DNA of 64,000 nucleotides, from the NCBI GenBank assembly GCA_030650025.1, contig JAUSEN010000005.1, forward strand, positions 3,631-67,630, given 5' to 3'. Position 1 is the first letter of the stretch. Every line of letters begins with the position of its first letter. The DNA is from Candidatus Magasanikiibacteriota bacterium (GTDB lineage Bacteria > Patescibacteriota > Patescibacteriia > Magasanikbacterales > GWA2-37-8). Below the pieces are notes generated by a model, which was not told the DNA's origin, ran no database searches, and saw nothing but the letters and a program-made list of their open reading frames with translations. Below are positions 2,730 through 62,406 of the stretch, piece by piece. The translations under genes were made by a program, and so were the position numbers.

Positions 2730-5042
2730 TTAAGGGGTGCTGGTGGCCGGGAGCGCGGGGCCGCCAACTAAGGAATTAATTTTGGTAATAACATCTTGAT
2801 TCTGGGGATTCAACTTCTTTACCTGGTAGTAATACTCGAGCGCTCTGGCTTTGGCGCCGCGGGATTCGCTTAAAAGCCCGAGGCTGTAAAGAGCGTTAGA
2901 ATTGTCCGCCTGCAGAGCTAAAACCTGCTGCCATAATTTTTCGGCATTGTCTCTGTCTCCATTCTTAGCGCGGTTATATAAAAGGCGTCCAAAATTGTAT
3001 AAAATATCCACGTCGTTTGGCAGTAGCGCATACACGGTTTGGTAGGTGGTAATAGCTTTATCTAAATTATTAGCCTGCTCATAAGCAACCGAGAGGCCTA
3101 CATAAGCAGGAGCGTAATCCTTTTTTAAATTAATGGCTTCTTGAAACAATTTTGTAGCGTTACTCCACTCGGAGGCCAGGGCATAATTGTTACCTAGGCG
3201 CCAGGCTAAAAATGGGTTGGTCGGTTCTAGGTCGCGGGCCTCAATAAGAGTATTAATCGCCAAAGAGCGCGCGCCCGGGACAAATAGCGCGGCGTTTTCA
3301 TACATCACAGTTAAGTTTTCCCAAAGAGCCACTGTCCGCGGACTCAAGGCAGTGGCGAAACGGGCAGTGACCACAGCCTGGCCGAGTAACTTACCGACTT
3401 TCTCTAAATCTGGCTTGGCAACGCGGCTCTCAACTATGGCCTGAAGCAAATAAGCTTGGGCTAACCCCGTGTGATAAGCGGCATAATTGCCGCGATAGCT
3501 AATGGCAGTTTTAACTTCTTCCTCGGCGATTTTATAGTCCTGGCTCGCTAACGCCTTAGTATAATGCCGTTCGGCAAAATAGAGGCGAAGGCCGTAAATA
3601 CCGCTAATTATCACCGCGCAGAGCACTACTATCATAACAAATGAAAACATTAAGCGATACTGGGGAGTGTCGGCAATAGCAAACTCATGGCCGCGCAGGG
3701 GCTCACCACCGGAGAGGGCGATGCCAATTGCCGTAAGAGCCAGGAGTACAAACCATAACCACCATAGCACCACGCCAAAAAATGTTACCAATAAACTGAC
3801 TGATAAAACAATCCAGGCTAAAGCTACTAAAAACACATCGAGCTGACTGCTAGGCTCTAAAATACTGCCACCGTCAGAACCCGGAAGTTCGCGGGTGGCT
3901 TTTTTAAGCTGGCGGAAACGAGCCGCTATATGCCCCAAAACCAACAAAATTATAATTAAAAGCGGAAACAAGGTAAGCACGCCACCCTCGGCCAAAATAG
4001 CGACTAGGCTACTTTGCGGACGGTGAAAACGCAATGACCAGGCAAGAGCGTCGTTATTAACGCTAACATCGCGAAACTGAGAAAAATCGATGCCAAAAGT
4101 TCCGAGGCCACTGCCGAGTAAAAAATTCTTCACTCCAAACAGCACGGTGTCGCGGGCAATCAACCAAGAAGATGCGCCATTCAACACAACCTCGGAGGGA
4201 ACAATGTTTTGAAAATTTTTCGGCGGCCCAAAGGCCAAAAGGAGCGCGGTGATTAGAAACAAAATAAACAGGACTGATAACCAACCAACGCGGCTAACCT
4301 TGATGAGAGTGATGCCGAGCGCAAGCAACAGAGCCAGAGCCAAGAGCAGTAACCACCAAATTATGGTAAAACCGAGAAGTACCAAACTGACAAAAGTGAG
4401 GAGGGCGATGAAGAAATATATCAATAACCAGGCGGCGGGCAAGGAACGGCTAATTAATTTGCCGGCCGCTAAAACAAAGATTACGATGAGCCAAACGCCA
4501 AAGGCACTATTCGCGATATCAACCGGGTTTAGCGCCGAGCCAACTAAGTAATTTAAGACGTCCCAATGCCACACGGCCTTAAGGATAAACACCAGGGCAC
4601 TGGTGCCACCGACTAAAACGATAGCGTGGACTAAAGATTCCCACCGCCTCACAGTCGAGATGGTATTAAGGCAGACAAAATACCAAATGACTGAAGAAAG
4701 AAGGAGAGCAAAACTAATAACTAAATAACTGTTGTTACCCCAAAAACTGTCGCCTCGAGCCACGGACCAAAGAGCGGATAAAAAGGCGGCAACCAACAAG
4801 CCCAGCAGGGGGAAGTCGAGAAACGAACGAACCAAAATTATTTTTTTGGAAAAAACTATTTTAACAGCAAAAACTAACAGGGCCAAAAGGCAGAGGCCCG
4901 CGCTTACTAATAACTTGCTAAGGGCAAAACTGTTAGTGACGCTGTTATCAACCGCCCAGGGCACGAGTATGGCCGCGGCGATTAAAAGGCCAAAGGTGAT
5001 CGCGTCAATTACGCGAGTGGCGTGATGGTGGATACTGAACAT
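2730..5042 (-). CDS. O-antigen-ligase-like (Wzy_C-type) polytopic membrane protein with C-terminal TPR repeats
   Basis: 770 aa with more than 10 hydrophobic segments. Contains the FGVKNFLLGSGLGTFG motif region. The C-terminal ~300 aa are TPR-like (YYYQVKKLNPQNQD, AYVGLSVAYEQANNLDKA). Confidence 0.6.
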   Translation of the reverse strand: MFSIHHHATRVIDAITFGLLIAAAILVPWAVDNSVTNSFALSKLLVSAGLCLLALLVFAVKIVFSKKIILVRSFLDFPLLGLLVAAFLSALWSVARGDSFWGNNSYLVISFALLLSSVIWYFVCLNTISTVRRWESLVHAIVLVGGTSALVFILKAVWHWDVLNYLVGSALNPVDIANSAFGVWLIVIFVLAAGKLISRSLPAAWLLIYFFIALLTFVSLVLLGFTIIWWLLLLALALLLALGITLIKVSRVGWLSVLFILFLITALLLAFGPPKNFQNIVPSEVVLNGASSWLIARDTVLFGVKNFLLGSGLGTFGIDFSQFRDVSVNNDALAWSLRFHRPQSSLVAILAEGGVLTLFPLLIIILLVLGHIAARFRQLKKATRELPGSDGGSILEPSSQLDVFLVALAWIVLSVSLLVTFFGVVLWWLWFVLLALTAIGIALSGGEPLRGHEFAIADTPQYRLMFSFVMIVVLCAVIISGIYGLRLYFAERHYTKALASQDYKIAEEEVKTAISYRGNYAAYHTGLAQAYLLQAIVESRVAKPDLEKVGKLLGQAVVTARFATALSPRTVALWENLTVMYENAALFVPGARSLAINTLIEARDLEPTNPFLAWRLGNNYALASEWSNATKLFQEAINLKKDYAPAYVGLSVAYEQANNLDKAITTYQTVYALLPNDVDILYNFGRLLYNRAKNGDRDNAEKLWQQVLALQADNSNALYSLGLLSESRGAKARALEYYYQVKKLNPQNQDVITKINSLVGGPALPATSTP

Positions 5043-11000: not shown

Positions 11001-11504
11001 AGGTGAAGCGGTGATTTGTTTTCTAGGGGTAAGAGTTTCACCAGCGACAGAAATTTCTAAATAAATGGTTTGGTTGTTTTGAAAAATACTAGAGTCGAGT
11101 GAATTAGTACCCGTGTCGCCAAGATTTATTGAAAATAGTCCGTTGGTTGGGGTGACATTGATTGTGCTGGTGGTAGGAAGAGTCCCGGAAGCCGTGTAGA
11201 GAGCCGTGCCGCCAGATGAAGCGCTGTATAAAACAAACTTCATGGCGACAGTAGTCGTGATAGCGAAGTTGCTCGAGTTTAACATTTTCCCTTGGTAAGT
11301 GATGAGGGCCGGGGCCGTGGCGGCGCGAGCAACAGAAGAATTGAAAATTGTCCCGCCGCGAGCGGGATCCCGCAGTGGCGGGAAAAATTGAAAAATTACA
11401 AATAACAAAATCACACCGATACCAAAAAATGACCGGCTTAACTTAACTTTTGCCCGACTTTTTTTCTGCATAAATATAACCTCAAAGCATTTTGCCAGAG
11501 GCAT
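5073..11504 (-). CDS. Giant (2143 aa) Thr/Ser/Gly-rich repetitive cell-surface protein, adhesin or fibre-like
   Basis: Single ORF. N-terminal signal/TM MQKKSRAKVKLSRSFFGIGVILLFVIFQFF; an alternative start is the ATG at 11471. Many internal protein repeats (TTTQxSSTITTANITTLNISxLTPTxLTWTNATGTN..., GNSYVRGSLVIGASSTPAYALDIQGTLGVS...). Cys-containing C-terminal domain followed by a Pro/Ala-rich tail. Confidence 0.8.
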   Translation of the reverse strand: MPLAKCFEVIFMQKKSRAKVKLSRSFFGIGVILLFVIFQFFPPLRDPARGGTIFNSSVARAATAPALITYQGKMLNSSNFAITTTVAMKFVLYSASSGGTALYTASGTLPTTSTINVTPTNGLFSINLGDTGTNSLDSSIFQNNQTIYLEISVAGETLTPRKQITASPFSFNSKYLDGVAATSSASTSTYIPISDSSGNFSLRNVTSTGLAITGTSTFPGSGIWGIGGVWGSSGKVGIGTTTPGYSLDIWGNGGGAGTRVRINDPTYAILTLGTPSIPFAANVAWDSGANALELKANSNAPSSTVDIYTNDIRRMIITASGTVGIGTASPGYTLDVQGTLGVSSTSTLATTTITASKPLLVNRILSTDAIATGITLQNQTFSPGGTHTAVDISPIYSAEDESHNAVRINAQQNGAAASLYSLDVYARKATAATTLTTMVAGAFNLVPTAGTITNGYNLVVQNQTGAGIFTNTAGLQIFNLSTVGGATSYGIHIDTQSANATTTRAINLSGVGVSNAIRMGGSANIYANAANNLRFADSTNVRGLDFNLTAAGDQTITSFGGGNIAFTTTTQTSSTITTANITTLNISALNPTSLTWTNATGTNLILTNATSTRLHVSGTSFTSDALLDFTTGRALTGSRYQIGRNTDGNLQFNVPAVNNGFRFSANGVPFMNISSTNITIGSDVVANPDGFEAISDLYINTTPVLTSGDDYGMVVYQLTDGSGTIANSLTGLFMQVGRVSDGATYTGGFTGGQFIAQAPSTGSVSSLIGVNAYVSTLGASVNDATGILGQVSLSGGAVTTSIALNGSISSSGGTHINAYGLYIAPISATAGTIANVYGARIEAPATGTTKWTLGVGTGNSYVRGSLVIGASSTPAYALDIQGTLGVSATSTFTTTTQVSSTITTANITTLNISSLTPTDLTWTNATGTNTILTNATATTFVVTGNEQINGALGLGTAPLTSAIFRIATTTALTGGTNVPGISNTVTVNSAANSGSYIADSSNLTTAGLGAVELSGSLIGSRGTAASAGDVASLIGSLEGLRGTVNISGGTVTSSYALRAQEIISAGTSTQMAGLYIPAITSSGGFIGTSYGFLIDAPGVGGTQWTAGIGTGNSYVRGSLVIGASSTPAYALDIQGTLGVSATSTFTTTTQASSTITNLHITTLADFGSATVTGLASADLSDTANIALLDANQTFTGNNTLSGLNTFSNTTTFTATTTFRTSTFSSSTITTANISTLNGTTILGTTFNGLTITNNGTNVLTIAAGKTLTANNSIAFTGTDSTTMTLPTVSATLAGLAIDQTFTGLNTFSNTTTFTATTTFTTTTQASSTITTANIGTLIFSSLGLVSSPVMRNATDTDTGIYFPSATAVGITTNGAERFSITDSAAILTQAARTSGTSTALTVIGGAHTSLTATAEVIDLDLAFNRTLQWAAGNVALQRAALLRAPTYSFTASSTISEAATFAVDRSPVVGSFATLTLAYTLGINSSGDNSAAEAAIGAAIVPPGIAAGKGAADLRIGLAVVAPGASSINLGNQTSTLTGFFPLYIASVGLAASSTRTITNVASAYILGAPSNIANVTFTNGPYAFWVDADTSRFDGSVTIGGTSSTPAAKLEVIDGAIMASGTTGATPGSGIGTRLMWIPAKAAFRAGQVTGDQWDDGNIGASSTALGYNTLASGNSAVVIGSSSTASGISSVAIGALTFANNTVATAIGYAVTASGVNSVGLGTNLTASATGSMALGNRITVSGENSFGIGVSSTVYSLSAANTFAVVGGRSLFGTTTLPTTTFQVYVDGGADTSPGLGVRGYIQASGFITASASLDLAELYPISMACYETNSCPEPGDAVCLTGGLPARIEKCGTAYSPKAIGIVSANPGFTLGGLDSSTTRKVALAGRVPLKILAANKVIRAGDRLTTSDIPGFAQKASEPGPTIAIAAEDYPSETSFEDGTILAFVNNSWAFPNGVLEATNTPPRTDGFWGTILQWLKQFGIEIEQGVLRVKEFFADKIHTQILCVGDTCVDESKLKDLLNNSALSPAVLDPLVTLPPSSPAPAPVLDSQPAPTTADPSVDLDSPNVATTTETVIIVTDTAAPAPTAPSLPPEPTEPVIAPEEAAAPAPAEPIAASIVEAISLPPAEPTPSPTLAPAPE
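8059..8182. repeat. 124-bp exact intragenic direct repeat, copy 1 (copy 2 at 8818..8941)
   Basis: Identical string gtggtggtggtgaacgtcgaagtagcggaaaccccaagcgtcccctgaatatcaagagcataggccggggtagagctagcgccaatcactaaactgccgcgtacatatgaattgcctgtgccaa found at both positions inside the giant gene. Confidence 0.85.
8818..8941. repeat. 124-bp exact intragenic direct repeat, copy 2
   Basis: See copy 1. The copies are 759 bp apart and in frame. Confidence 0.85.
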
Positions 11505-15758: not shown

Positions 15759-15760
15759 GG

Positions 15761-15850
15761 TGGACCTAGCCAGCCCCGCACCACGCTGGGTGCGGGGTAA
15801 AAATCGAACTGCCGTCCCGGCAATGCGCCCCGACGTAAAGTCGGGGTAAA
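15761..15850 (-). pseudogene. tRNA-Ala-like 3' partial duplicate (anticodon loop to CCA) with GC-rich hairpin insertions
   Basis: Minus-strand reading ...GCGCATTGCCGGGACGGCAGTTCGATT[TTTACCCCGCACCCAGCGTGGTGCGGGG]CTGGCTAGGTCCACCA matches the 3' part of the adjacent tRNA-Ala(CGC). It carries a 27-nt hairpin in the T-arm, and a second hairpin CCCCGACTTTACGTCGGGG lies just 5'. There is no 5' acceptor strand. Confidence 0.45.
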
Positions 15851-23798: not shown

Positions 23799-23897
23799 CG
23801 ATAAACAATTTTCAATCGGCTCTCAAATTGTTAATTGTTACTTGTCCCGCCACAGCGGGATCCCGCCTCGCGGCGGTGATTAATTGAATAAATTTTT

Positions 23898-29138: not shown

Positions 29139-31973
29139 TTATAATTTTATTGTCTCCAGCTCATTCCAATTTTTTCCTGCTTTAACTTCGACTCGAACCG
29201 GGACAAGCAATTTTACCACGTTCTCCATGATATCTTTAACCAGCGCGCCAACTTCCGTGGCGCTATTTTTATCCACTTCAAAAATTAATTCATCGTGAAC
29301 TTGGAGGAGTAATTGGACTTTGGACCCTAGACTTTGCCTGCCCGCAACGGCTTCGCCGTAGCGAAGTCGGGCGGGGACTTTGGACGCGACCGCGATCATG
29401 GCCATTTTCATGAGGTCCGCGGCGGTGCCTTGAATGGGGTGGTTAATAGCCATGCGCTCGGCCGCGGAGCGCAGTTGAAAGTTGCTGGCGGTGAGCTCGG
29501 GGATATAACGGCGGCGTCCAAAGAGAGTCTCGCAGTAGCCATTCTCTCTGGTAAATTGTAAAGTTCCGTCCAGATATTTCTTGACGCCGCTAAACTCGCT
29601 AAAATATTTTTTAATAAAATCCCGAGCCTCGGCGTGGGGGATCTCGGCGCGCCAAGCCAAGCCATAAGCGCCCATGCCATAAAGAATGCCAAAATTAACT
29701 TCTTTGGCACTGCGCCGCATTTCTTTGGATACGTCTTTAAGAGGCACGCCATGGATAGCGGCGGCCGTAGCGGTATGGACATCTTCACCAGCCTCAAAAA
29801 TTTCCATGAGGCGCTTATCTTTAGCGAGCGAGGCGACAATGCGCAGTTCAATTTGAGAATAATCGGCGCTTAATAAAACTTTGCCCGGAGGAGCGATAAA
29901 CGCGGAGCGAATGGCTCGCCCGAGAGCAGTACGAACGGGGATGTTTTGTAAATTAGGTTCAGAACTCGAAAGGCGCCCGGTGGCTGTCACCGCCTGATTA
30001 AACGTAGTGTGAATCCGACCGGTGGTTTTGTTTATTAAGGTCGGGAGAACGTCGATGTAAGTATTTTGGAGCTTGGCTAATTCGCGATATTCTTGAATTT
30101 CGTCAACCACCAGATGCACGCCACGCAATTTCTCCAATTGTTCGGCATCAGTAGAGAGGCCAGTTTTGCCTTTTTTTAAACCCGCGGTCGGAATTTGTAA
30201 TTTGTCGAATAAGACTTCGCGTAGTTGGAGAGGCGAAGCAATATTAAATTCCATGCCCGCTAATTTATAAATTTTTTGCGTTAAATTTTTGATAGCTTCA
30301 GCCACGTCTGTAGACAGCCCGCCGAGCTTGACCCGATCAATACTAATCCCGGCCAGTTCCATAGCGACCAACACTTTAATAAGAGGCATTTCCACATTAG
30401 TAAATAAACCTAAATTATTGGCGCTCTCTAATTCTTGTTTTAAAATTTTTCCAGCAGTAGCTAAATAAAATAATTCTTGCGCCGCGGCCCGGGCGTCAAA
30501 GCCAAATAAACTTTCCTGGCCACTGCCGGCTGTCAATTCTTTGCCTAAAGTTTTTAAAATGATCGCGGCGCTATCGTGGGCGCGACTGCCGGGCTGAAGC
30601 AGGTAGGAGGCGATCATGGTGTCGAAAAGATGGCACGCGAGACCCCCTCCCCGCCCGACTTCGCTACGGCGAAGCCGTTGCGGGCGGGCTGGCTCCCCCT
30701 TTGCGAAGGGGGAGGAATGAATTGTCAAAATCTTTACCAATTGTTTTAAATCGTGGCCGATGACTGTGATTTCTGGGTTGGTAAAAATTCCGTCAATTAC
30801 GTAGGGGCGGGGTAACCCCGCCCCTACGGGATATTGATTTAAATTGTTCGGGACAAAAAAACCTTCGTTACCAACGACAATCACAAACCCATTTAAATTT
30901 CCGGAAAAAACATCATTGCCAGAGAAAGCGGCGCGACAAGCAAATTCTTTGGCGATTAAAATTTTCTCAACTAAATTTTTTACTTCTGATGTCGATTTTA
31001 TTTCTGTAAAAATAAAATCGATTAATTTTTGGCTTTTTTTAATTTTTGGTTTTTTTTCTTCGGCAGTATCAGGGCTCCCCGGCAAACGTTTTAATAGCGA
31101 AATAAATTCCAATTTTTGAAATAAGGCCGTAATCGGACCACGATCCAGCTCTTTAATAGCGCAATCCTCCAATTTAAAATTTAACCCCGGCACAGCGTTA
31201 TCTAATTTGGAAAGTTCATAGCTCATCTCGGCGCTCTCTTCGCCGGCAATTAATTTCTGAAGCACTCCGGGTTTAATTTTTTTGGTTAATTGTTCTTTGC
31301 TAGTTGTTAATTGTTTATAAATATTTTTTAAACTGCCAAATTCTTTAATTAAATCAGTCGCGGTTTTGGCGCCAATGCCCGGCACGCCGGGGATATTGTC
31401 CGAAGCATCACCGCGCAAGGCTTTGTAATCGAGCATCAGCTCGGGCCCAAAACCATACCTGTCTTTTACCGCCTTTTCATCATAAATAACCGTATCAGAC
31501 AAACCTTTTTTAAGAGTATAAACTTTTATGCCATCGTGCACGAGTTGCAGGGTGTCCATGTCGCCCGTGACGATAAATATTTCTAGTTCTTTATTTTGGG
31601 CTAATTTTTTATTTATCTCCACCAATGTGCCAATAACATCATCGGCTTCGTAGCCTTCCTGCTCAAAAATCGGGAATTTAAAAGCGCGTACTAAATCGTG
31701 CACCAGGGGAATTTGCGAATACAGTTCCGGATCAGCCTTAACGCGCGTGGCTTTGTATTGATCATAGCGTTTTAAGCGGGCATGGCTGCCGCCCGCCACA
31801 TCAAAAGTAACGGCTAGATGCGTGGGCTTTAAGTCTTTAAGGGTCTTTAAAAGCATGGAAGTAAAGCCATAGACAGCATTAACCATGAGCCCGCTTTTAG
31901 TATTCATGGGCGGAATAGCGTGGTAAGCCCGATGGATAATGGCGTTACCATCGATAATTACTAATCGGTTCAT
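29139..31973 (-). CDS. polA: DNA polymerase I
   Basis: 944 aa. N-terminal 5'-nuclease (MNRLVIIDGNAIIHRAYHA), polymerase motifs A (LLSADYSQIELRI), B (RRSAKEVNFGILYG) and C (QVHDELIFEV). Confidence 0.95.
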   Translation of the reverse strand: MNRLVIIDGNAIIHRAYHAIPPMNTKSGLMVNAVYGFTSMLLKTLKDLKPTHLAVTFDVAGGSHARLKRYDQYKATRVKADPELYSQIPLVHDLVRAFKFPIFEQEGYEADDVIGTLVEINKKLAQNKELEIFIVTGDMDTLQLVHDGIKVYTLKKGLSDTVIYDEKAVKDRYGFGPELMLDYKALRGDASDNIPGVPGIGAKTATDLIKEFGSLKNIYKQLTTSKEQLTKKIKPGVLQKLIAGEESAEMSYELSKLDNAVPGLNFKLEDCAIKELDRGPITALFQKLEFISLLKRLPGSPDTAEEKKPKIKKSQKLIDFIFTEIKSTSEVKNLVEKILIAKEFACRAAFSGNDVFSGNLNGFVIVVGNEGFFVPNNLNQYPVGAGLPRPYVIDGIFTNPEITVIGHDLKQLVKILTIHSSPFAKGEPARPQRLRRSEVGRGGGLACHLFDTMIASYLLQPGSRAHDSAAIILKTLGKELTAGSGQESLFGFDARAAAQELFYLATAGKILKQELESANNLGLFTNVEMPLIKVLVAMELAGISIDRVKLGGLSTDVAEAIKNLTQKIYKLAGMEFNIASPLQLREVLFDKLQIPTAGLKKGKTGLSTDAEQLEKLRGVHLVVDEIQEYRELAKLQNTYIDVLPTLINKTTGRIHTTFNQAVTATGRLSSSEPNLQNIPVRTALGRAIRSAFIAPPGKVLLSADYSQIELRIVASLAKDKRLMEIFEAGEDVHTATAAAIHGVPLKDVSKEMRRSAKEVNFGILYGMGAYGLAWRAEIPHAEARDFIKKYFSEFSGVKKYLDGTLQFTRENGYCETLFGRRRYIPELTASNFQLRSAAERMAINHPIQGTAADLMKMAMIAVASKVPARLRYGEAVAGRQSLGSKVQLLLQVHDELIFEVDKNSATEVGALVKDIMENVVKLLVPVRVEVKAGKNWNELETIKL
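29345..29380. repeat. GC-rich palindromic element, in-frame within the polA polymerase domain; reverse complement of the 30639..30678 element
   Basis: cccgcaacggcttcgccgtagcgaagtcgggcgggg. Translated as part of VPARLRYGEAVAGRQ just before motif C. Confidence 0.7.
30633..30706. repeat. GC-rich composite palindromic element, in-frame within polA (exo-domain-equivalent region)
   Basis: ccccctccccgcccgacttcgctacggcgaagccgttgcgggcgggctggctccccctttgcgaagggggagg. The core at 30639-30678 is the reverse complement of 29345-29380. Translated as FAKGEPARPQRLRRSEVGRGGGLA. Confidence 0.7.
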
Positions 31974-32060
31974 GTTTGGAATTTTTAAAATAGACTACTC
32001 GATCATTATAACTCGTCCTGTTCAACTTGAAAAGTTGTTTGTTTTGTGGTATTTTTAGAG

Positions 32061-32099
32061 CCACGGCCCGATAGCCAAGTTAGAAAGGCAAAGGTCTGC
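32061..32099 (+). pseudogene. 5' partial copy of tRNA-Cys (4-nt leader plus positions 1-35), interrupted in the anticodon loop by a hairpin element
   Basis: ccacGGCCCGATAGCCAAGTTAGAAAGGCAAAGGTCTGC is identical to 32156-32194. After the 31-nt insert the sequence resumes with AAAACCT (anticodon stem 3' side) and then diverges. Confidence 0.6.
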
Positions 32100-32130
32100 C
32101 TCCCTACGGGAGATCCCCCGCAGGGGGACA
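32100..32130. repeat. 31-nt double-hairpin element, left copy (perfect inverted copy at 32506..32536)
   Basis: ctccctacgggagatcccccgcagggggaca. Two tandem hairpins: tccc/ggga and ccccc/ggggg. Confidence 0.8.
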
Positions 32131-32159
32131 AAACCTATTATAAACTTATTAATTACCAC

Positions 32160-32232
32160 GGCCCGATAGCCAAGTTAGAAAGGCAAAGGTCTGCAAAACC
32201 TTCATGCGCGGGTGCAACTCCCGCTCGGGCCT
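32160..32232 (+). tRNA. tRNA-Cys (anticodon GCA)
   Basis: GGCCCGATAGCCAAGTTAGAAAGGCAAAGGTCTGCAAAACCTTCATGCGCGGGTGCAACTCCCGCTCGGGCCT. Acceptor GGCCCGA/TCGGGCC, U73 discriminator typical of Cys, anticodon loop CTGCAAA. The T-loop TGCAACT is slightly non-canonical. Confidence 0.6.
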
Positions 32233-32235
32233 CAC

Positions 32236-32500
32236 TGTGTACTACGTTTACGCACTGCAAAGTCTGAAAAATAAAAATTGGCTATATATTGGCTCGTCAG
32301 AAAATTTACGGGCCCGTTTTGATGAACATACAAGCGGAAAAGTTATTTCTACAGCTAAATATAGACCACTTCGATTAGTTTATTACGAAGCATTTCTGAA
32401 CAAGAAAGATGCGACTCTACGAGAATATCAGCTTAAACATAATAGCCAGCAGAAAGAACAGCTAAAACTTAAACTTATCAATTCTCTTCAGGCTGAATAG
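32236..32500 (+). CDS. Small GIY-YIG (URI-domain, YhbQ/UPF0213-like) nuclease
   Basis: VYYVYALQSLKNKNWLYIGSSENLRARFDEHTSGK...LRLVYYEAFLNKKDATLREYQLK. The ORF-track ATG at 32204 lies inside the tRNA, so a GTG at 32236 is proposed as the start. Paralog of the 49112..49369 gene. Confidence 0.6.
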
Positions 32501-32505
32501 TTGGG

Positions 32506-32536
32506 TGTCCCCCTGCGGGGGATCTCCCGTAGGGAG
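32506..32536. repeat. 31-nt double-hairpin element, right copy (inverted)
   Basis: tgtccccctgcgggggatctcccgtagggag is the exact reverse complement of 32100-32130. Confidence 0.8.
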
Positions 32537-32596
32537 ACAAGTCCCTCCGTGGCCTCACAATTTTCTTGTTTCTTGCCTGGCAAGATTTTTTTATTT

Positions 32597-48931: not shown

Positions 48932-48986
48932 TGGTGGACCCTGTCGGGCTCGAACCGACCACCTCCGCATTGCAAACGCGGCGCTC
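48932..48986 (-). pseudogene. 3' portion (D-stem 3' strand to CCA) of a split tRNA-Ala(UGC)-like gene
   Basis: Minus-strand reading GAGCGCCGCGTTTGCAATGCGGAGGTGGTCGGTTCGAGCCCGACAGGGTCCACCA: anticodon loop TTTGCAA, T-loop TTCGAGC, encoded CCA. The matching 5' piece GGGCCCTTAGCTCAT lies at 49443-49457, separated by ~456 bp. Confidence 0.55.
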
Positions 48987-49038
48987 CCGTGCACCACAAG
49001 GGTGCACGGCCATGAACCCTTGTGGTTCATGGTACCAG
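48983..49038. repeat. 56-nt double-hairpin direct repeat, copy 1 (copy 2 at 49387..49442)
   Basis: gctcccgtgcaccacaagggtgcacggccatgaacccttgtggttcatggtaccag. Hairpins ccgtgcacc/ggtgcacgg and catgaacc/ggttcatg. Copy 2 is identical except for one nt. Confidence 0.85.
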
Positions 49039-49110
49039 TGGACCTGAGGGGATTCGCACCCCTGACCTTCGCCTTGCAAAGGCGCCGCTCTACTACTGAG
49101 CTACAGGCCC
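49039..49110 (-). tRNA. tRNA-Ala (anticodon UGC)
   Basis: GGGCCTGTAGCTCAGTAGTAGAGCGGCGCCTTTGCAAGGCGAAGGTCAGGGGTGCGAATCCCCTCAGGTCCA. G3:U70 pair, anticodon loop TTTGCAA. Confidence 0.8.
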
Positions 49111-49111
49111 T

Positions 49112-49369
49112 TTATTTAGTTGACCTCAAGTATTCGTACAGCATTAATCGTAATGTTGTTTTGCCTTTGTTTGTTTTGAAATATTTTTCTCTCCTCTTGG
49201 CATCATGCTCGTGTAAAAAGGCCTCATAAAAAATAAGTTTGACCGGTAAAAATTTGCTTGTTGTTTTATCCCCACCCGCGGAGTGTTCTCTGACTCGGCG
49301 TTTAAGATCGGCTGAATAGCCCGTGTAAAATTGTTTATTGCACATCATTAATATGTAGGTATAAAACAT
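49112..49369 (-). CDS. Small GIY-YIG (YhbQ/UPF0213-like) nuclease, paralog of the 32236..32500 gene
   Basis: MFYTYILMMCNKQFYTGYSADLKRRVREHSAGGDKTTSKFLPVKLIFYEAFLHEHDAKRREKYFK aligns with the other GIY-YIG protein. The ORF-track N-terminus (to 49417) is encoded by repeat copy 2 and is probably not translated. The stop lies 1 nt from the tRNA-Ala 5' end. Confidence 0.6.
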   Translation of the reverse strand: MFYTYILMMCNKQFYTGYSADLKRRVREHSAGGDKTTSKFLPVKLIFYEAFLHEHDAKRREKYFKTNKGKTTLRLMLYEYLRSTK

Positions 49370-49386
49370 ATTTGCAGATATATATT

Positions 49387-49442
49387 GCTCCCGTGCACCA
49401 CAAGGGTGCACGGCCATGAACCCTTGTGGTTCATGGTTCCAG
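49387..49442. repeat. 56-nt double-hairpin direct repeat, copy 2
   Basis: gctcccgtgcaccacaagggtgcacggccatgaacccttgtggttcatggttccag. Confidence 0.85.
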
Positions 49443-49457
49443 ATGAGCTAAGGGCCC
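49443..49457 (-). pseudogene. 5' piece (acceptor 5' strand plus D-stem) of the split tRNA-Ala-like gene
   Basis: Minus-strand reading GGGCCCTTAGCTCAT. GGGCCCT pairs with AGGGTCC of the 48932-48986 piece, including G3:U70. Confidence 0.45.
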
Positions 49458-50654: not shown

Positions 50655-50756
50655 AATGTCGTGAATACCCCCTCGCTTTTCTCGGCCCCCGCCCAGGGCG
50701 GGCTCGGGGCGACCCGCCTCGGGCGGGTCAAACCCGCTCGGGAATATTCACGACAT
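50653..50756. repeat. Approx. 105-bp palindromic element: 15-bp terminal inverted repeats flanking GC-rich internal hairpins
   Basis: ataatgtcgtgaata (50653-50667) ... cccgcccagggcggg ... gacccgcctcgggcgggtc ... tattcacgacattat (50742-50756). The arms overlap the start of the 50133..50654 gene and the last 8 codons of the 50728.. gene. Confidence 0.75.
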
Positions 50757-62320: not shown

Positions 62321-62400
62321 ATATATGGAGAGGTGGCGCACGCGCACACCGAATTAGATTACACATGGAGAGGTGGCGCACGCGCACACCGAATTAGATT
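62321..62400 (+). repeat. Two tandem 40-bp repeats, each duplicating the first ~12 nt of tRNA-Ser plus upstream -10-like sequence
   Basis: a(t/c)atggagaggtggcgcacgcgcacaccgaattagatt repeated twice, then a third copy of acatggagaggtg continues into the intact tRNA. Confidence 0.8.
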
Positions 62401-62406
62401 ATACAT

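Follow-up and report, generated by a model that had tools for sequence, protein, structure and literature searches.

How does a tRNA-Cys gene come to be broken inside its anticodon by a GC-rich double hairpin, just upstream of an intact tRNA-Cys gene, a small nuclease gene and an inverted copy of the same hairpin? This arrangement (locus 1) lies in the 64,000-nt stretch of Candidatus Magasanikiibacteriota DNA analysed here, hereafter the window. It spans 32061–32558 and comprises a direct repeat, a split tRNA copy, the intact tRNA-Cys, the nuclease gene, the inverted hairpin and a 3' remnant. An initial annotation of the letters alone had taken it for a small selfish element associated with tRNA genes. 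We compared the locus with a second one in the window (locus 2) and with loci of related contigs, which are denoted by L numbers.

Layout of the tRNA loci in the window

The features of locus 1, all on the plus strand, are the following.

32027–32055, plus: promoter-like site, TTGAAA-17-TATTTT with TG, just 5' of the unit (consensus match only)
32060–32065, plus: GCCACG, complementary to CGTGGC at 32549–32554; the G at 32065 is common to the following partial tRNA copy
32065–32098, plus: partial tRNA-Cys copy, nt 1–34, part of the 39-nt direct repeat, to which the CCAC leader and C35 also belong
32099–32128, plus: 30-nt double hairpin, CCTCCC-TAC-GGGAGA / TCCCCC-GCA-GGGGGA with central GATC, in the anticodon
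32129–32136, plus: resumed tRNA-Cys sequence, nt 35–42, CAAAACCT, then divergence
32137–32159, plus: AT-rich spacer and second copy of the CCAC leader
32160–32232, plus: intact tRNA-Cys(GCA), the putative working copy of the cassette (ARAGORN end 32232/3; Rfam 60.1 bits)
32237–32500, plus: 87-aa GIY-YIG nuclease gene with GTG start, Slx1/UPF0213 type (Pfam PF01541, E=1.6e-14)
32508–32537, plus: inverted double-hairpin copy, TCCCCCTGCGGGGGATCTCCCGTAGGGAGA, with 30/30 nt identity to both L001 copies
32538–32557, plus: tRNA-Cys 3'-end remnant, with part of the T-loop, the 3' strand of the T-stem, the acceptor CGTGGCC and TCA
32571–32595, plus: intrinsic-terminator-like hairpin, then a T run

The 39-nt direct repeat CCACGGCCCGATAGCCAAGTTAGAAAGGCAAAGGTCTGC, described in the initial annotation as the first 35 nt of tRNA-Cys with four leader nucleotides, was found at 32061–32099 and 32156–32194 with 100% identity between the copies. 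The break had been placed after the second anticodon-loop nucleotide; it actually falls inside the anticodon, after G34 if the 30-nt unit at 32099–32128 is used, or after C35 in the 31-nt coordinates. The tRNA sequence resumes briefly and then diverges, as had been reported, with nt 35/36–42 at 32129–32136, and a piece CAAAACTC that matches the CAAAACCT segment is also present 3' of the hairpin in L001, L081, L085 and L088. Both ARAGORN and Rfam recovered the intact tRNA-Cys(GCA), whose D-loop lacks GG and whose T-loop is TGCAACT. The GIY-YIG gene was likewise recovered, its length being corrected from about 88 to 87 aa. Two copies of the 31-nt hairpin element, and no more, are present in the window, at 32100–32130 (plus) and 32506–32536 (minus), and the second copy is indeed a perfect inverted one, with 0 mismatches; such a match appeared in 0 of 100 shuffled sequences, and the inverted repeat extends to 34 nt.

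The segment GCCACG at 32060–32065 is likely to be what is left of an older tRNA-Cys, namely its acceptor strand on the 5' side. In the predicted RNA fold, the acceptor remnants GCCACGG and CCGUGGC are paired, and L094 contains an intact tRNA-Cys with the same GGCCACG/CGTGGCC acceptor. At the other end, 32538–32558 has diverged from the tRNA-Cys 3' end (16 of 21 nt match), and L001 and L085 carry homologous, full 35–76 remnants with the same acceptor. Nucleotides 35–55 of the outer tRNA-Cys are missing. In the predicted transcript of locus 1, the two hairpin copies pair into a stem of 31–34 bp, which prolongs the anticodon arm and is closed by the acceptor-like helix (z = -7.4).

For 48.9–49.5 kb, the annotation had noted a paralogous nuclease gene with analogous repeats and a split tRNA. 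All three are present, but the repeats are direct and not inverted. In the direction of transcription, locus 2 reads as follows.

49437–49457, minus: nt 1–21 (5' fragment) of the outer gene, a canonical tRNA-Ala(UGC)
49391–49436, minus: 46-nt double hairpin, copy 1, with mutually complementary loops ACAAG and CTTGT
49112–49369, minus: GIY-YIG paralog of 85 aa, 40% identical to the locus 1 nuclease (Pfam PF01541, E=7.5e-14)
49039–49110, minus: intact inner tRNA-Ala(UGC), 71% identical to the outer gene
48987–49032, minus: 46-nt double hairpin, copy 2, a direct repeat extending to 51 nt
48932–48986, minus: 3' part of the outer tRNA-Ala(UGC), nt 22–76 including CCA

The hairpins of locus 2 interrupt the canonical tRNA-Ala in its D-loop, and the virtual removal of 450 nt (49436..48987) yields a 76-nt tRNA-Ala(UGC) with G3:U70 and a perfect cloverleaf. 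In the inner tRNA-Ala, G3:U70 is present, CCA is not encoded, the D-loop lacks GG and the T-loop is TGCGAAT. With an identity of only 71% to the outer copy, it is not a local duplicate. An ARAGORN call of tRNA-Ala at 48932–49005 was rejected as an artefact that joins the 3' part of the split gene to hairpin sequence and scores only 20.1 bits in Rfam. Locus 2 is an independent and cleaner example of the same kind as locus 1.

Two further tRNA loci of the window bear remnants with hairpins and no nuclease gene, an observation that counts against the explanation favoured below.

15760–15846, minus: tRNA-Ala(CGC) 3' remnant, 3' of the intact gene, in the order hairpin, nt 33–42, T-arm piece, hairpin, nt 59–72 plus CCA
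62327–62406, plus: two 40-nt tandem units directly 5' of an intact tRNA-Ser(CGA), each consisting of tRNA-Ser nt 1–9 and a GC-rich near-palindrome

The nuclease family and its surroundings in relatives

In the nuclease, the catalytic residues are conserved: Y3, Y5, Y17, G19, R27, H31 and E63, among others, are invariant in 23 homologs, and no Asn occurs in the invariant or near-invariant columns. The protein, of 85–87 aa, consists of the catalytic domain alone. The best PDB matches were 1zg2 (E=2e-14) and 1ywl (2e-08), followed by SLX1 (5e-04), with I-TevI only marginal. Judged by its sequence, the nuclease is a member of the minimal Slx1/UPF0213 branch without an auxiliary domain, and not of the Seg/I-TevI branch. 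In the study that defined the former branch, the prokaryotic family was held to be a non-selfish repair family of mainly vertical descent, and the selfish GIY-YIG enzymes, including the HEase cluster, were assigned by sequence to the UvrC+ lineage (PMC1564403). We found at least 556 family matches in a species-level genome set, and relatives of the element are present at numerous tRNA, rRNA and other genes of candidate-phyla-radiation bacteria. The nuclease clades follow tRNA identity or inverted-repeat type. Carriage by phages was considered and rejected, as a scan of viral contigs with the protein profile gave only five distant matches and the hairpin pattern was absent from the viral contigs scanned.

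The empty tRNA-Cys locus that the annotation had suggested looking for in relatives exists. Six contigs with the gene order M23–tRNA-Cys–polA (L091, L092, L093, L095, L096 and L099) carry one clean tRNA-Cys each, and have no nuclease, no tRNA fragments and no flanking hairpins. The window and L081 are occupied at this conserved site, which is therefore polymorphic for presence and absence (six empty, two occupied) at family-level and not strain-level divergence. Among contigs encoding an identical P0002 protein, the sole difference, in L084, turned out to be a scaffold gap of Ns, and strain-level polymorphism was rejected there. Between the window and L081, identity is 76% for the nuclease, 57% for PolA and 47% for M23; the higher conservation of the nuclease would fit horizontal transfer. 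As compared to the ancestral orientation of tRNA-Cys, the window unit is inverted as a whole, together with its remnants, and a simple homing event at the resident gene cannot produce this. An inversion between the hairpin copies was rejected as the cause of this orientation, because the outer remnants are inverted too.

GIY-YIG paralogs beside tRNA genes, another of the proposed checks, proved to be frequent: at 42 of the 82 family loci, a tRNA on the same strand lies no more than 150 nt away, where about 2 would be expected (background density, 0.06 tRNAs per kb), and in 23 of these it lies within 14 nt. Partial tRNA copies adjoining GC hairpins number 43 in 26 loci. They break in D-loops, anticodon loops and T-loops. 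The breakpoints recorded are nt 11–14, 21–23, 33–37, 48 and 54–56, and such copies accompany 10 of 29 nuclease-adjacent tRNAs as compared to 0 of 16 distant ones (p=0.008). Many 5' fragments are 100% identical to the adjoining tRNA; in L022, L001, L081 and L062, the acceptor stems of inner and outer tRNAs differ. L062 contains three nested generations and L085 a tandem cassette. When the inserts were virtually excised at about 88 loci, an outer tRNA of the same anticodon was restored only at locus 2 (W2), L062 and L050, and in none of the shifted controls; the fact that no more than 3 loci allow a complete outer tRNA to be rebuilt also counts against the favoured explanation. Junction-spanning ARAGORN calls numbered four, without locus 1 (W1), where rebuilding the outer tRNA-Cys fails for lack of nt 35–55. 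The Arg and Gly calls in L001 were discarded as spurious products of a cut contig.

The CGTGGCC-type 3' remnant is common to the window, L001 and L085 despite their different inner tRNAs, and its carriers occur in at least two different genomic contexts, so the remnants may travel with the element instead of being local leftovers. A shared T-stem type, considered as possible proof that cassette and tRNA travel together, was not conclusive, as the intact gene of L094 has the same T-stem.

GC hairpins reach a density of 7.5 per kb in the 100 nt flanking the cassettes, as compared to about 1.5 per kb further out (about fivefold). The double hairpin is a strict 2 x 15-nt unit, of which 37 examples were counted in 689 kb against 1 in shuffles, nearly all of them at cassette edges. 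The search for further hairpin copies also revealed the identical 30-mer in L001, where the DNA of the nuclease gene shows only 66% identity. Flanking repeats of at least 12 nt, in either orientation, were found at 31 of 67 loci and in 0 of 67 mismatched locus pairs. The copies flanking one cassette are identical (31/31, 46/46, 30/30, 32/32) and differ between loci of the same genome, and the hairpin ends at a regular distance of 10–40 nt 5' of the nuclease start codon. GC hairpins are also present in-frame in the window polA, where orthologs lack them, and L024 grpE contains, also in-frame, the same 30-nt double hairpin with one mismatch; the hairpins may therefore be an independent repeat class. 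G.T versus A.C mismatches in near-perfect double hairpins, which bear on RNA- versus DNA-level selection, amounted to eleven cases, too few to decide.

Among the relatives, 25 lack a tRNA and are elements of 277–322 bp with terminal inverted repeats, perfect over 11–22 bp (at least 12 bp in 19 of 25). They sit in 16S and 23S rRNA, RNase P-like RNA and pilin genes and at ATGA gene junctions. In L005, a 306-nt insert with 19-bp inverted ends replaces an 11-nt 16S loop, and L019 has the same form of insertion in 23S; as in rRNA intervening sequences (IVS), the insertion lies at the tip of a host RNA helix and its own inverted ends form a stem. Terminal inverted repeats, a hallmark of DNA transposons, are thus found in these 25 relatives and, as the perfect 31-nt repeat, at locus 1, while locus 2 and L001 have direct repeats instead. 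Flanking direct repeats of 2–4 nt, with no fixed length, accompany 9 of the 25 (about 1.6 expected). The element encodes no known transposase (DDE, Y1/HUH or Ser/Tyr recombinase), its only ORF being the GIY-YIG nuclease, and to our knowledge GIY-YIG nucleases constitute no class of transposase.

Explanations for the arrangement

We consider it fairly probable that locus 1 is a compact selfish cassette that has disrupted or displaced a tRNA-Cys gene and supplied a replacement copy. The cassette would comprise the 87-aa Slx1/UPF0213 nuclease gene, the complete tRNA-Cys and a 30-nt double hairpin at each end, and would be flanked by the 5' and the 3' part of another tRNA-Cys, which is broken at 34/35 of its anticodon. 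Its tRNA would have taken over the function, with the flanking fragments as dead remnants. The nuclease may cut the loop region of a cassette-less tRNA gene, or a hairpin or cruciform formed there. Repair of the break from a cassette-bearing copy, with the tRNA halves serving as short homology arms, would then copy the cassette in, similarly to homing with co-conversion. With the invaded gene destroyed, in a small genome that usually contains a single gene for each tRNA, the cassette tRNA would become indispensable, and the nuclease gene would ride along with it. The nested and tandem tRNA fragments could stem from repeated invasions and from recombination between hairpins, and the hairpin ends could be the counterpart of the terminal inverted repeats in the tRNA-less relatives of about 300 bp.

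In support of the selfish element first proposed, there are the empty and occupied sites, the association with tRNA genes at 42 of 82 loci, the tRNA fragments, the hairpins and the clean insertion in tRNA-Ala. The sequence comparison shows the anatomy of an insertion, empty alleles, recurrence at many tRNA types and conservation of the hairpins; mobility of the cassette is the best reading of this comparison, made at roughly family-level divergence. A protein of 87 aa that consists of the catalytic domain alone is unlikely to pick out a long, specific site unaided, and specificity of the classical homing type is therefore doubtful. At locus 1, the outer tRNA is split at the hairpin, but the anticodon-loop sequence of the supposed target is retained in the inner tRNA-Cys; the inner tRNA of locus 2 differs in the D-loop at the insertion point.

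A wider reading, possible but on balance doubtful, is that the family may form a new class of ultra-small autonomous elements, of about 300 bp, or about 440 bp with the tRNA cargo. Taken together, its parts would be that the sole protein is a minimal Slx1-type structure-specific GIY-YIG nuclease; that the target is not a sequence but DNA hairpin loops in tRNA, rRNA and RNase P RNA genes; that the 30-nt double hairpins are ORF-less, MITE-like derivatives mobilised in trans and landing in-frame in proteins; and that the tRNA-carrying version makes itself indispensable by destroying and replacing the resident tRNA gene, a form of addiction.

The hairpins might also be independent, genome-wide GC-rich palindromic repeats, similar to REP elements, Rickettsia palindromic elements or mitochondrial GC clusters, that insert at any tolerant site, pile up in neutral, dead tRNA fragments and are neither cassette ends nor substrates. 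The in-frame copies in polA and L024 grpE and the nuclease-less remnants at tRNA-Ala(CGC) and tRNA-Ser(CGA) agree with this account. We regard it as unlikely, given that the two copies of a cassette are identical and yet differ between loci of one genome, that their spacing from the nuclease start codon is regular, that the density peak is restricted to the 100 nt beside the cassette, and that tRNA-less relatives have inverted repeats at the equivalent positions. Somewhat further from our preference is a vertically inherited host gene, acting for instance in repair or RNA processing, that is co-transcribed with tRNAs and never transferred between genomes; fragments and hairpins would then be by-products of replication slippage or break-induced amplification near a highly transcribed gene. 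The view of Slx1/UPF0213 as non-selfish and mainly vertical (PMC1564403) speaks for it, as do a report that T4 SegB promotes segmental amplification of an anti-defence locus (PMC13096335) and the many 5' fragments fully identical to the adjoining tRNA. It is nevertheless distinctly unlikely in view of the empty sites within the same gene order, the divergence of inner from outer tRNAs (71% identity at locus 2; acceptor stems in the four relatives above) and the stronger conservation of the nuclease as compared to the flanking housekeeping proteins. Further evidence against it comes from the insertion of the family into rRNA helices, pilin genes and gene junctions, and from the two paralogs, only 40% identical, at different tRNAs of one 64-kb window.

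If the outer tRNA pieces were functional, the hairpins would unite the halves, and the insert would be removed before ligation, cleavage of the long stem by RNase III being one possibility. The outer halves of locus 2, complete and forming a perfect canonical tRNA-Ala with encoded CCA, would suit such a process, as would the predicted stem and acceptor-like helix of locus 1 and the self-splicing introns that Patescibacteria carry at tRNA position 35/36 (PMC13011429). A group I or II intron or other known RNA was rejected, however: at both loci, Rfam covariance models found only tRNAs at the gathering threshold and noise at E up to 1, and the ORF and the tRNA leave no space for a ribozyme core. 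The exons are incomplete at locus 1, where the outer 3' part lacks nt 35–55 and no tRNA can be rebuilt; most loci hold fragments only, and the outer gene is made redundant by the complete tRNA of the same anticodon that always lies inside. We identified no pathway in the window that would splice or ligate RNA with such inserts, and we know of none in bacteria. We therefore consider functional outer pieces very improbable, and return to the displacing cassette.

Relation to known systems and consequences

Short GC-rich palindromes are known to proliferate as REP/RAYT, Rickettsia palindromic elements, mitochondrial GC clusters and fungal double-hairpin elements. Like these, the hairpins of the window can sit in-frame in proteins and flank the gene of a presumed mobilising enzyme. 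Unlike in REP/RAYT, where palindromes also flank the enzyme gene, the enzyme is a GIY-YIG protein and not a Y1 (HUH) transposase, and the 2 x 15-nt hairpins lie preferentially in tRNA-gene loops by the nuclease. The integrative elements that target tRNA genes and bring along a replacement segment of the tRNA rely on tyrosine or serine integrases and extend over kilobases, and their duplication at the att site is confined to the tRNA 3' end. The window element shares with them the tRNA target and the restoration of function by element-borne sequence, but it measures about 440 bp, has no recombinase and carries a whole tRNA gene.

Seg proteins have about 200–250 aa and a C-terminal DNA-binding domain; those of the window are far shorter, with the catalytic domain alone and no C-terminal Asn, and belong to the Slx1/UPF0213 branch. 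T4 SegB is encoded in a tRNA gene cluster, and SegA–G are free-standing GIY-YIG homing endonucleases of T4-like phages (PMC2330249). The GIY-YIG domain, the position of the nuclease gene beside tRNAs and the proposed spread by break repair that copies flanking markers are shared, whereas Seg genes are not known to lie inside a tRNA gene or to have hairpin ends, and the window element has both features. The T4 seg comparison drawn in the initial annotation thus stands as a functional analogy only and not as a family relationship, because the nuclease is not of the Seg/I-TevI type with a DNA-binding domain. The closest relatives with solved structures are Slx1/UPF0213 proteins (YhbQ-like; 1zg2, 1ywl) and SLX1, which have the minimal domain in common with it; unlike that family, taken as one of vertically inherited repair proteins, the window members behave as genes of mobile elements.

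GIY-YIG ORFs in insertions of CPR rRNA genes go back to Brown et al. 2015, as cited in Tsurumaki et al. 2024 (PMC11270868), and the latter describe the rRNA insertions as sitting atop stem-loops and as not being group I/II introns (PMC11270868). They involve the same protein family, L005 (16S) and L019 (23S) having been found with the window's protein; the window element adds a replacement tRNA gene, double-hairpin ends and tRNA remnants. The tRNA group I introns of Patescibacteria lie at 35/36, with HNH, LAGLIDADG and PD-(D/E)XK as the endonuclease families reported (PMC13011429). The window element occurs in the same phylum at nearly the same tRNA position, and these introns too sometimes carry a homing endonuclease gene; it differs in having no ribozyme, in securing function via a second tRNA gene and in its nuclease family. 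In this phylum, the searchable full-text literature describes GIY-YIG ORFs borne by rRNA genes as well as group I introns of tRNA genes; it yielded no description of a tRNA cassette.

If the cassette reading is true, a selfish endonuclease would occupy an essential RNA gene not as a self-splicing intron but by bringing a spare copy, and would be hard to lose. In bacteria with tiny genomes, tRNA genes would then be replaceable, horizontally exchanged cargo. Such cassettes would account for tRNA calls that are spurious or fragmentary, the false tRNA-Ala described above being one, and may explain why many contigs end beside these genes. The minimal Slx1/UPF0213 branch, so far seen as housekeeping repair, would join the enzymes of mobile elements, and the elements with terminal inverted repeats, together with the conserved 30-nt double hairpins, would provide a testable system for a structure-specific nuclease that drives DNA mobility.

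Organization of the two tRNA cassettes

The tRNA-Cys locus (locus 1) had been described as a partial tRNA duplication with a GIY-YIG nuclease gene and perfect inverted double hairpins, and each of these parts was recovered on the plus strand, as follows.

32027-32055: promoter-like site bracketing the unit on one side
32060-32065, plus: GCCACG, complementary to the acceptor strand of the 3' remnant
32061-32099 and 32156-32194, plus: 39-nt direct repeat (CCAC leader and tRNA-Cys nt 1-35)
32100-32130 and, inverted, 32506-32536: 31-nt double hairpin, exactly two copies in the window, 0 mismatches
32160-32232, plus: intact tRNA-Cys(GCA)
32237-32500, plus: GIY-YIG ORF of 87 aa with a GTG start (domain E=1.6e-14)
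32538-32557, plus: diverged tRNA-Cys 3' end beyond the inverted hairpin
32571-32585: terminator-like hairpin bracketing the unit on the other side

A match such as that of the 31-nt element occurred in none of 100 shuffles. The first tRNA copy is indeed interrupted, but not after the second anticodon-loop nucleotide, as the initial annotation had it; the break falls within the anticodon and follows either G34 or C35, according to the limits chosen for the insert, and tRNA-Cys sequence (nt 35-42) returns after the first hairpin. When the locus is folded as a single RNA, the hairpin copies are predicted to pair in a 31-34-bp stem closed by a GCCACGG/CCGUGGC helix (z = -7.4), with the intact tRNA held in the loop as a cloverleaf. 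The nuclease protein shows 100% identity to an NCBI entry named Candidatus Magasanikbacteria, of the candidate phyla radiation (CPR).

The second GIY-YIG gene with repeats and a split tRNA was likewise found, at 49457-48932 (locus 2). Its parts, in order along the minus strand, are:

tRNA-Ala nt 1-21
46-nt double hairpin
85-aa GIY-YIG paralog, 40% identical to the locus 1 nuclease
intact, unusual tRNA-Ala(UGC)
direct copy of the hairpin
tRNA-Ala nt 22-76 with CCA

Removal of 49436..48987 yields a perfect 76-nt tRNA-Ala(UGC) with a G3:U70 pair; this outer gene and the inner tRNA-Ala share only 71% identity. Locus 2 is therefore a foreign cassette with its own tRNA-Ala, inserted in the D-loop of a canonical resident gene. 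The 'tRNA-Ala' reported by ARAGORN at 48932-49005 is an artefact of this layout and scores only 20.1 bits with Rfam. Rfam models detected no ribozyme at either locus, which distinguishes both from the group I introns reported at tRNA position 35/36 in this phylum (PMC13011429).

The D-loop GG is absent, and the T-loop starts with TGC instead of TTC, in some tRNA-Cys genes of the lineage and in the inner tRNA-Ala (32160-32232 and 49039-49110), while relatives having the D-loop GG retain TTC; this looks like a coupled change in the D-loop/T-loop contact. Elsewhere in the window, a second tRNA-Ala(CGC) 3'-half remnant with an encoded CCA (15760-15846, minus strand) lies downstream of the intact tRNA-Ala(CGC) and is cut by two GC hairpins, CCCCGAC...GTCGGGG and CCCCGCACC...GGTGCGGGG. 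Two 40-nt tandem units at 62327-62406 directly precede the intact tRNA-Ser(CGA), each composed of tRNA-Ser nt 1-9 (GGAGAGGTG), a GC-rich near-palindrome and an AT-rich tail. No nuclease gene lies near the remnants of either tRNA.

Association with tRNA genes and empty sites

A scan of one genome per species gave at least 556 relatives of the nuclease, most of them in Patescibacteria and the remainder in Omnitrophota and other phyla. The initial annotation had proposed looking for paralogs beside tRNA genes, and among 82 loci (80 from the scan and the two in the window) 42 carry a same-strand tRNA within 150 nt, as compared to about 2 expected from the tRNA density of 0.06 per kb at more than 500 nt away. 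The tRNA is downstream of the nuclease in 31 of these loci and upstream in 11, the gap is at most 14 nt in 23, and the tRNA types comprise Cys, Trp, Met, Glu, Ile, Leu, Ser, Asp, Ala, Pro, Val and Phe. Nuclease clades in a rough neighbour-joining tree track tRNA identity or inverted-repeat type, and the Cys clade includes both gene orders. Many genome contigs in the family scan table stop close to the nuclease gene, at a distance of a few hundred bases or less, perhaps because the cassette-flanking repeats disrupt short-read assembly.

Partial tRNA copies, 43 in all, are spread over 26 loci and were found at 10 of 29 nuclease-adjacent tRNAs as compared to 0 of 16 distant ones (p=0.008). Breakpoints are concentrated at nt 11-14, 21-23, 33-37, 48 and 54-56, corresponding to the D, anticodon, variable and T loops, and GC hairpins abut 21 of 34 3' ends and 12 of 27 5' starts. 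Virtual excision between flanking hairpins rebuilt an outer tRNA of the same anticodon at locus 2 (Ala) and at the comparison loci L062 (Ile), which has three nested layers, and L050 (Met), while shifted controls rebuilt none. Upstream of the full cassette at the comparison locus L085 lie the final 75 nt of a nuclease gene, tRNA nt 1-34 and a hairpin, which makes this a tandem or re-invaded cassette. At another locus, L022 (2744-2766 and 3579-3652), hairpin-bearing tRNA-Leu sequence is downstream of a tRNA-Cys cassette and an intact tRNA-Leu, and a copy of its hairpin is also upstream of the cassette, suggesting a nested or two-tRNA arrangement.

Empty tRNA-Cys loci, whose existence in relatives had been raised as a check, were sought by a metagenome scan using the neighbouring M23 peptidase of the window. 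Six contigs share the gene order M23, tRNA-Cys, polA, with M23 proteins 47-53% identical to that of the window; each has one clean same-strand tRNA-Cys, with no nuclease gene, tRNA fragments or flanking hairpins. The window and the comparison locus L081 are occupied. L081 retains the ancestral orientation, whereas in the window the whole locus 1 unit lies in the opposite orientation with respect to M23 and polA, and the 3' remnant of L081 matches the tRNA-Cys type of the empty contigs. Between the two occupied loci the nuclease is 76% identical, as compared to 57% for PolA and 47% for M23, a pattern that fits horizontal movement. The acceptor type of the locus 1 remnant (GGCCACG/CGTGGCC) is present as an intact gene at L094. 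Given that this remnant type also adjoins the cassettes of L001 and L085, whose inner tRNAs differ, and that the genomic context of L085 differs from that of the window, the tRNA remnants may be co-converted flanks travelling with the element.

Double hairpins and tRNA-less relatives

Within 100 nt of a cassette on each side, GC hairpins reach a density of 7.5 per kb, as compared to about 1.5 per kb elsewhere. The form seen most frequently is a strict unit of 30 nt built from two 15-nt hairpins (each with a 6-bp arm and a 3-nt loop), in most cases TC....GA|TC....GA around a central GATC; it occurs 37 times in 689 kb versus once in shuffles. Nearly all such units are at most 60 nt upstream of the nuclease start or directly past the cassette. 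Among these hairpins, C-rich 5' arms number 53 versus 14, and among distant hairpins 258 versus 181 (p=0.001). Stems vary between loci by two-sided pair changes, while the copies around one cassette are identical. Further copies of the window element do exist: L001 has the 30-mer unchanged, twice, although its nuclease gene and that of the window share only 66% DNA identity.

A one-mismatch version of the 30-mer lies in-frame, as 10 codons, at L024 5109-5138 (Jorgensenbacteria), in a grpE-like gene directly upstream of dnaK. The polA gene of the window (minus strand) has in-frame GC-rich hairpins at 30659-30828 and 29351-29366, which add short stretches of peptide (residues ~382-392, 420-439 and 870-875) that are missing from the L095 and L096 orthologs; at the corresponding positions L091 has other insertions. 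On this evidence the hairpins are conserved, structured and mobile, and they may act as DNA or as RNA. Other hairpins of the same style in the window (11351-11383, 23845-23860 and 50688-50737), including TCCCGC...GCGGGA twice in tandem within a 2143-aa surface-protein ORF and CCCGCCC-A-GGGCGGG between two genes, look like the outer ends of the tRNA-less relatives' inverted repeats.

In 25 of the 40 loci without an adjacent tRNA, perfect terminal inverted repeats of 11-22 bp (e.g. CCCCGCCCTTTTGG, CCCCCACACCTTTT) closely frame the ORF, for a total length of 277-322 bp. Flanking duplications of 2-4 nt, not fixed in length, occur at 9 of these 25 elements. The insertions, listed for L005; L019; L011; L033, L041, L068; L017, L049; and L046, L072, L078, are:

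16S rRNA, L005 2965-3274: element in place of an 11-nt loop
16S rRNA, L011: near the 3' end, by sequence inspection
23S rRNA: L019 ~2950-3260
putative RNase P RNA-like sequences, from a conserved GGAGGAAAGTCCGAAC motif read by eye
type IV pilin genes: N-terminal region
ATGA stop/start gene junctions

Four elements from Omnitrophota and Planctomycetales (L002, L004, L008, L012) occupy the loop of a conserved host hairpin upstream of the ribosome-binding site (…GAATTTGA, element, TTCAATTCGCAG…); this host RNA matched no Rfam family at the gathering threshold.

The nuclease and a possible mode of spread

The nearest solved structures are the UPF0213 proteins BH0048 (1zg2, 2e-14) and EF2693 (1ywl), followed by SLX1 structure-specific endonucleases, with a marginal match to I-TevI; the catalytic Tyr, Arg, His and Glu are among the invariant residues. 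UPF0213-type proteins form the minimal prokaryotic Slx1 branch, held to be vertically inherited and repair-related, and selfish GIY-YIG enzymes have been traced to another lineage (PMC1564403). GIY-YIG ORFs are known in non-intron insertions of CPR rRNA genes, for which tRNA genes, inverted repeats and hairpins go unmentioned and homing is doubted (PMC11270868). A full-text literature search, which missed most subscription journals, found no description of the tRNA cassette, and an earlier one is possible.

Since the protein is small and kin to SLX1, we speculate that what it recognises is not a long sequence but a DNA structure (hairpin loop, cruciform or three-way junction), which would account for the insertions in tRNA and rRNA genes lying at loop positions. 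The nuclease would make a break that leads to the cassette being copied into a tRNA gene still free of it. The tRNA halves would provide the homology arms, the hairpins would serve as the ends of the element or as the nuclease's substrate, and the replacement tRNA would render the cassette indispensable.

As judged by sequence comparison, a compact cassette is enclosed by, or lies next to, broken copies of a tRNA gene of the same anticodon, at many tRNA types and at sites empty in relatives, which supports the selfish-element reading of the initial annotation. The cassette would then be a form of selfish endonuclease element, and the chance of its being something more distinct is substantial.
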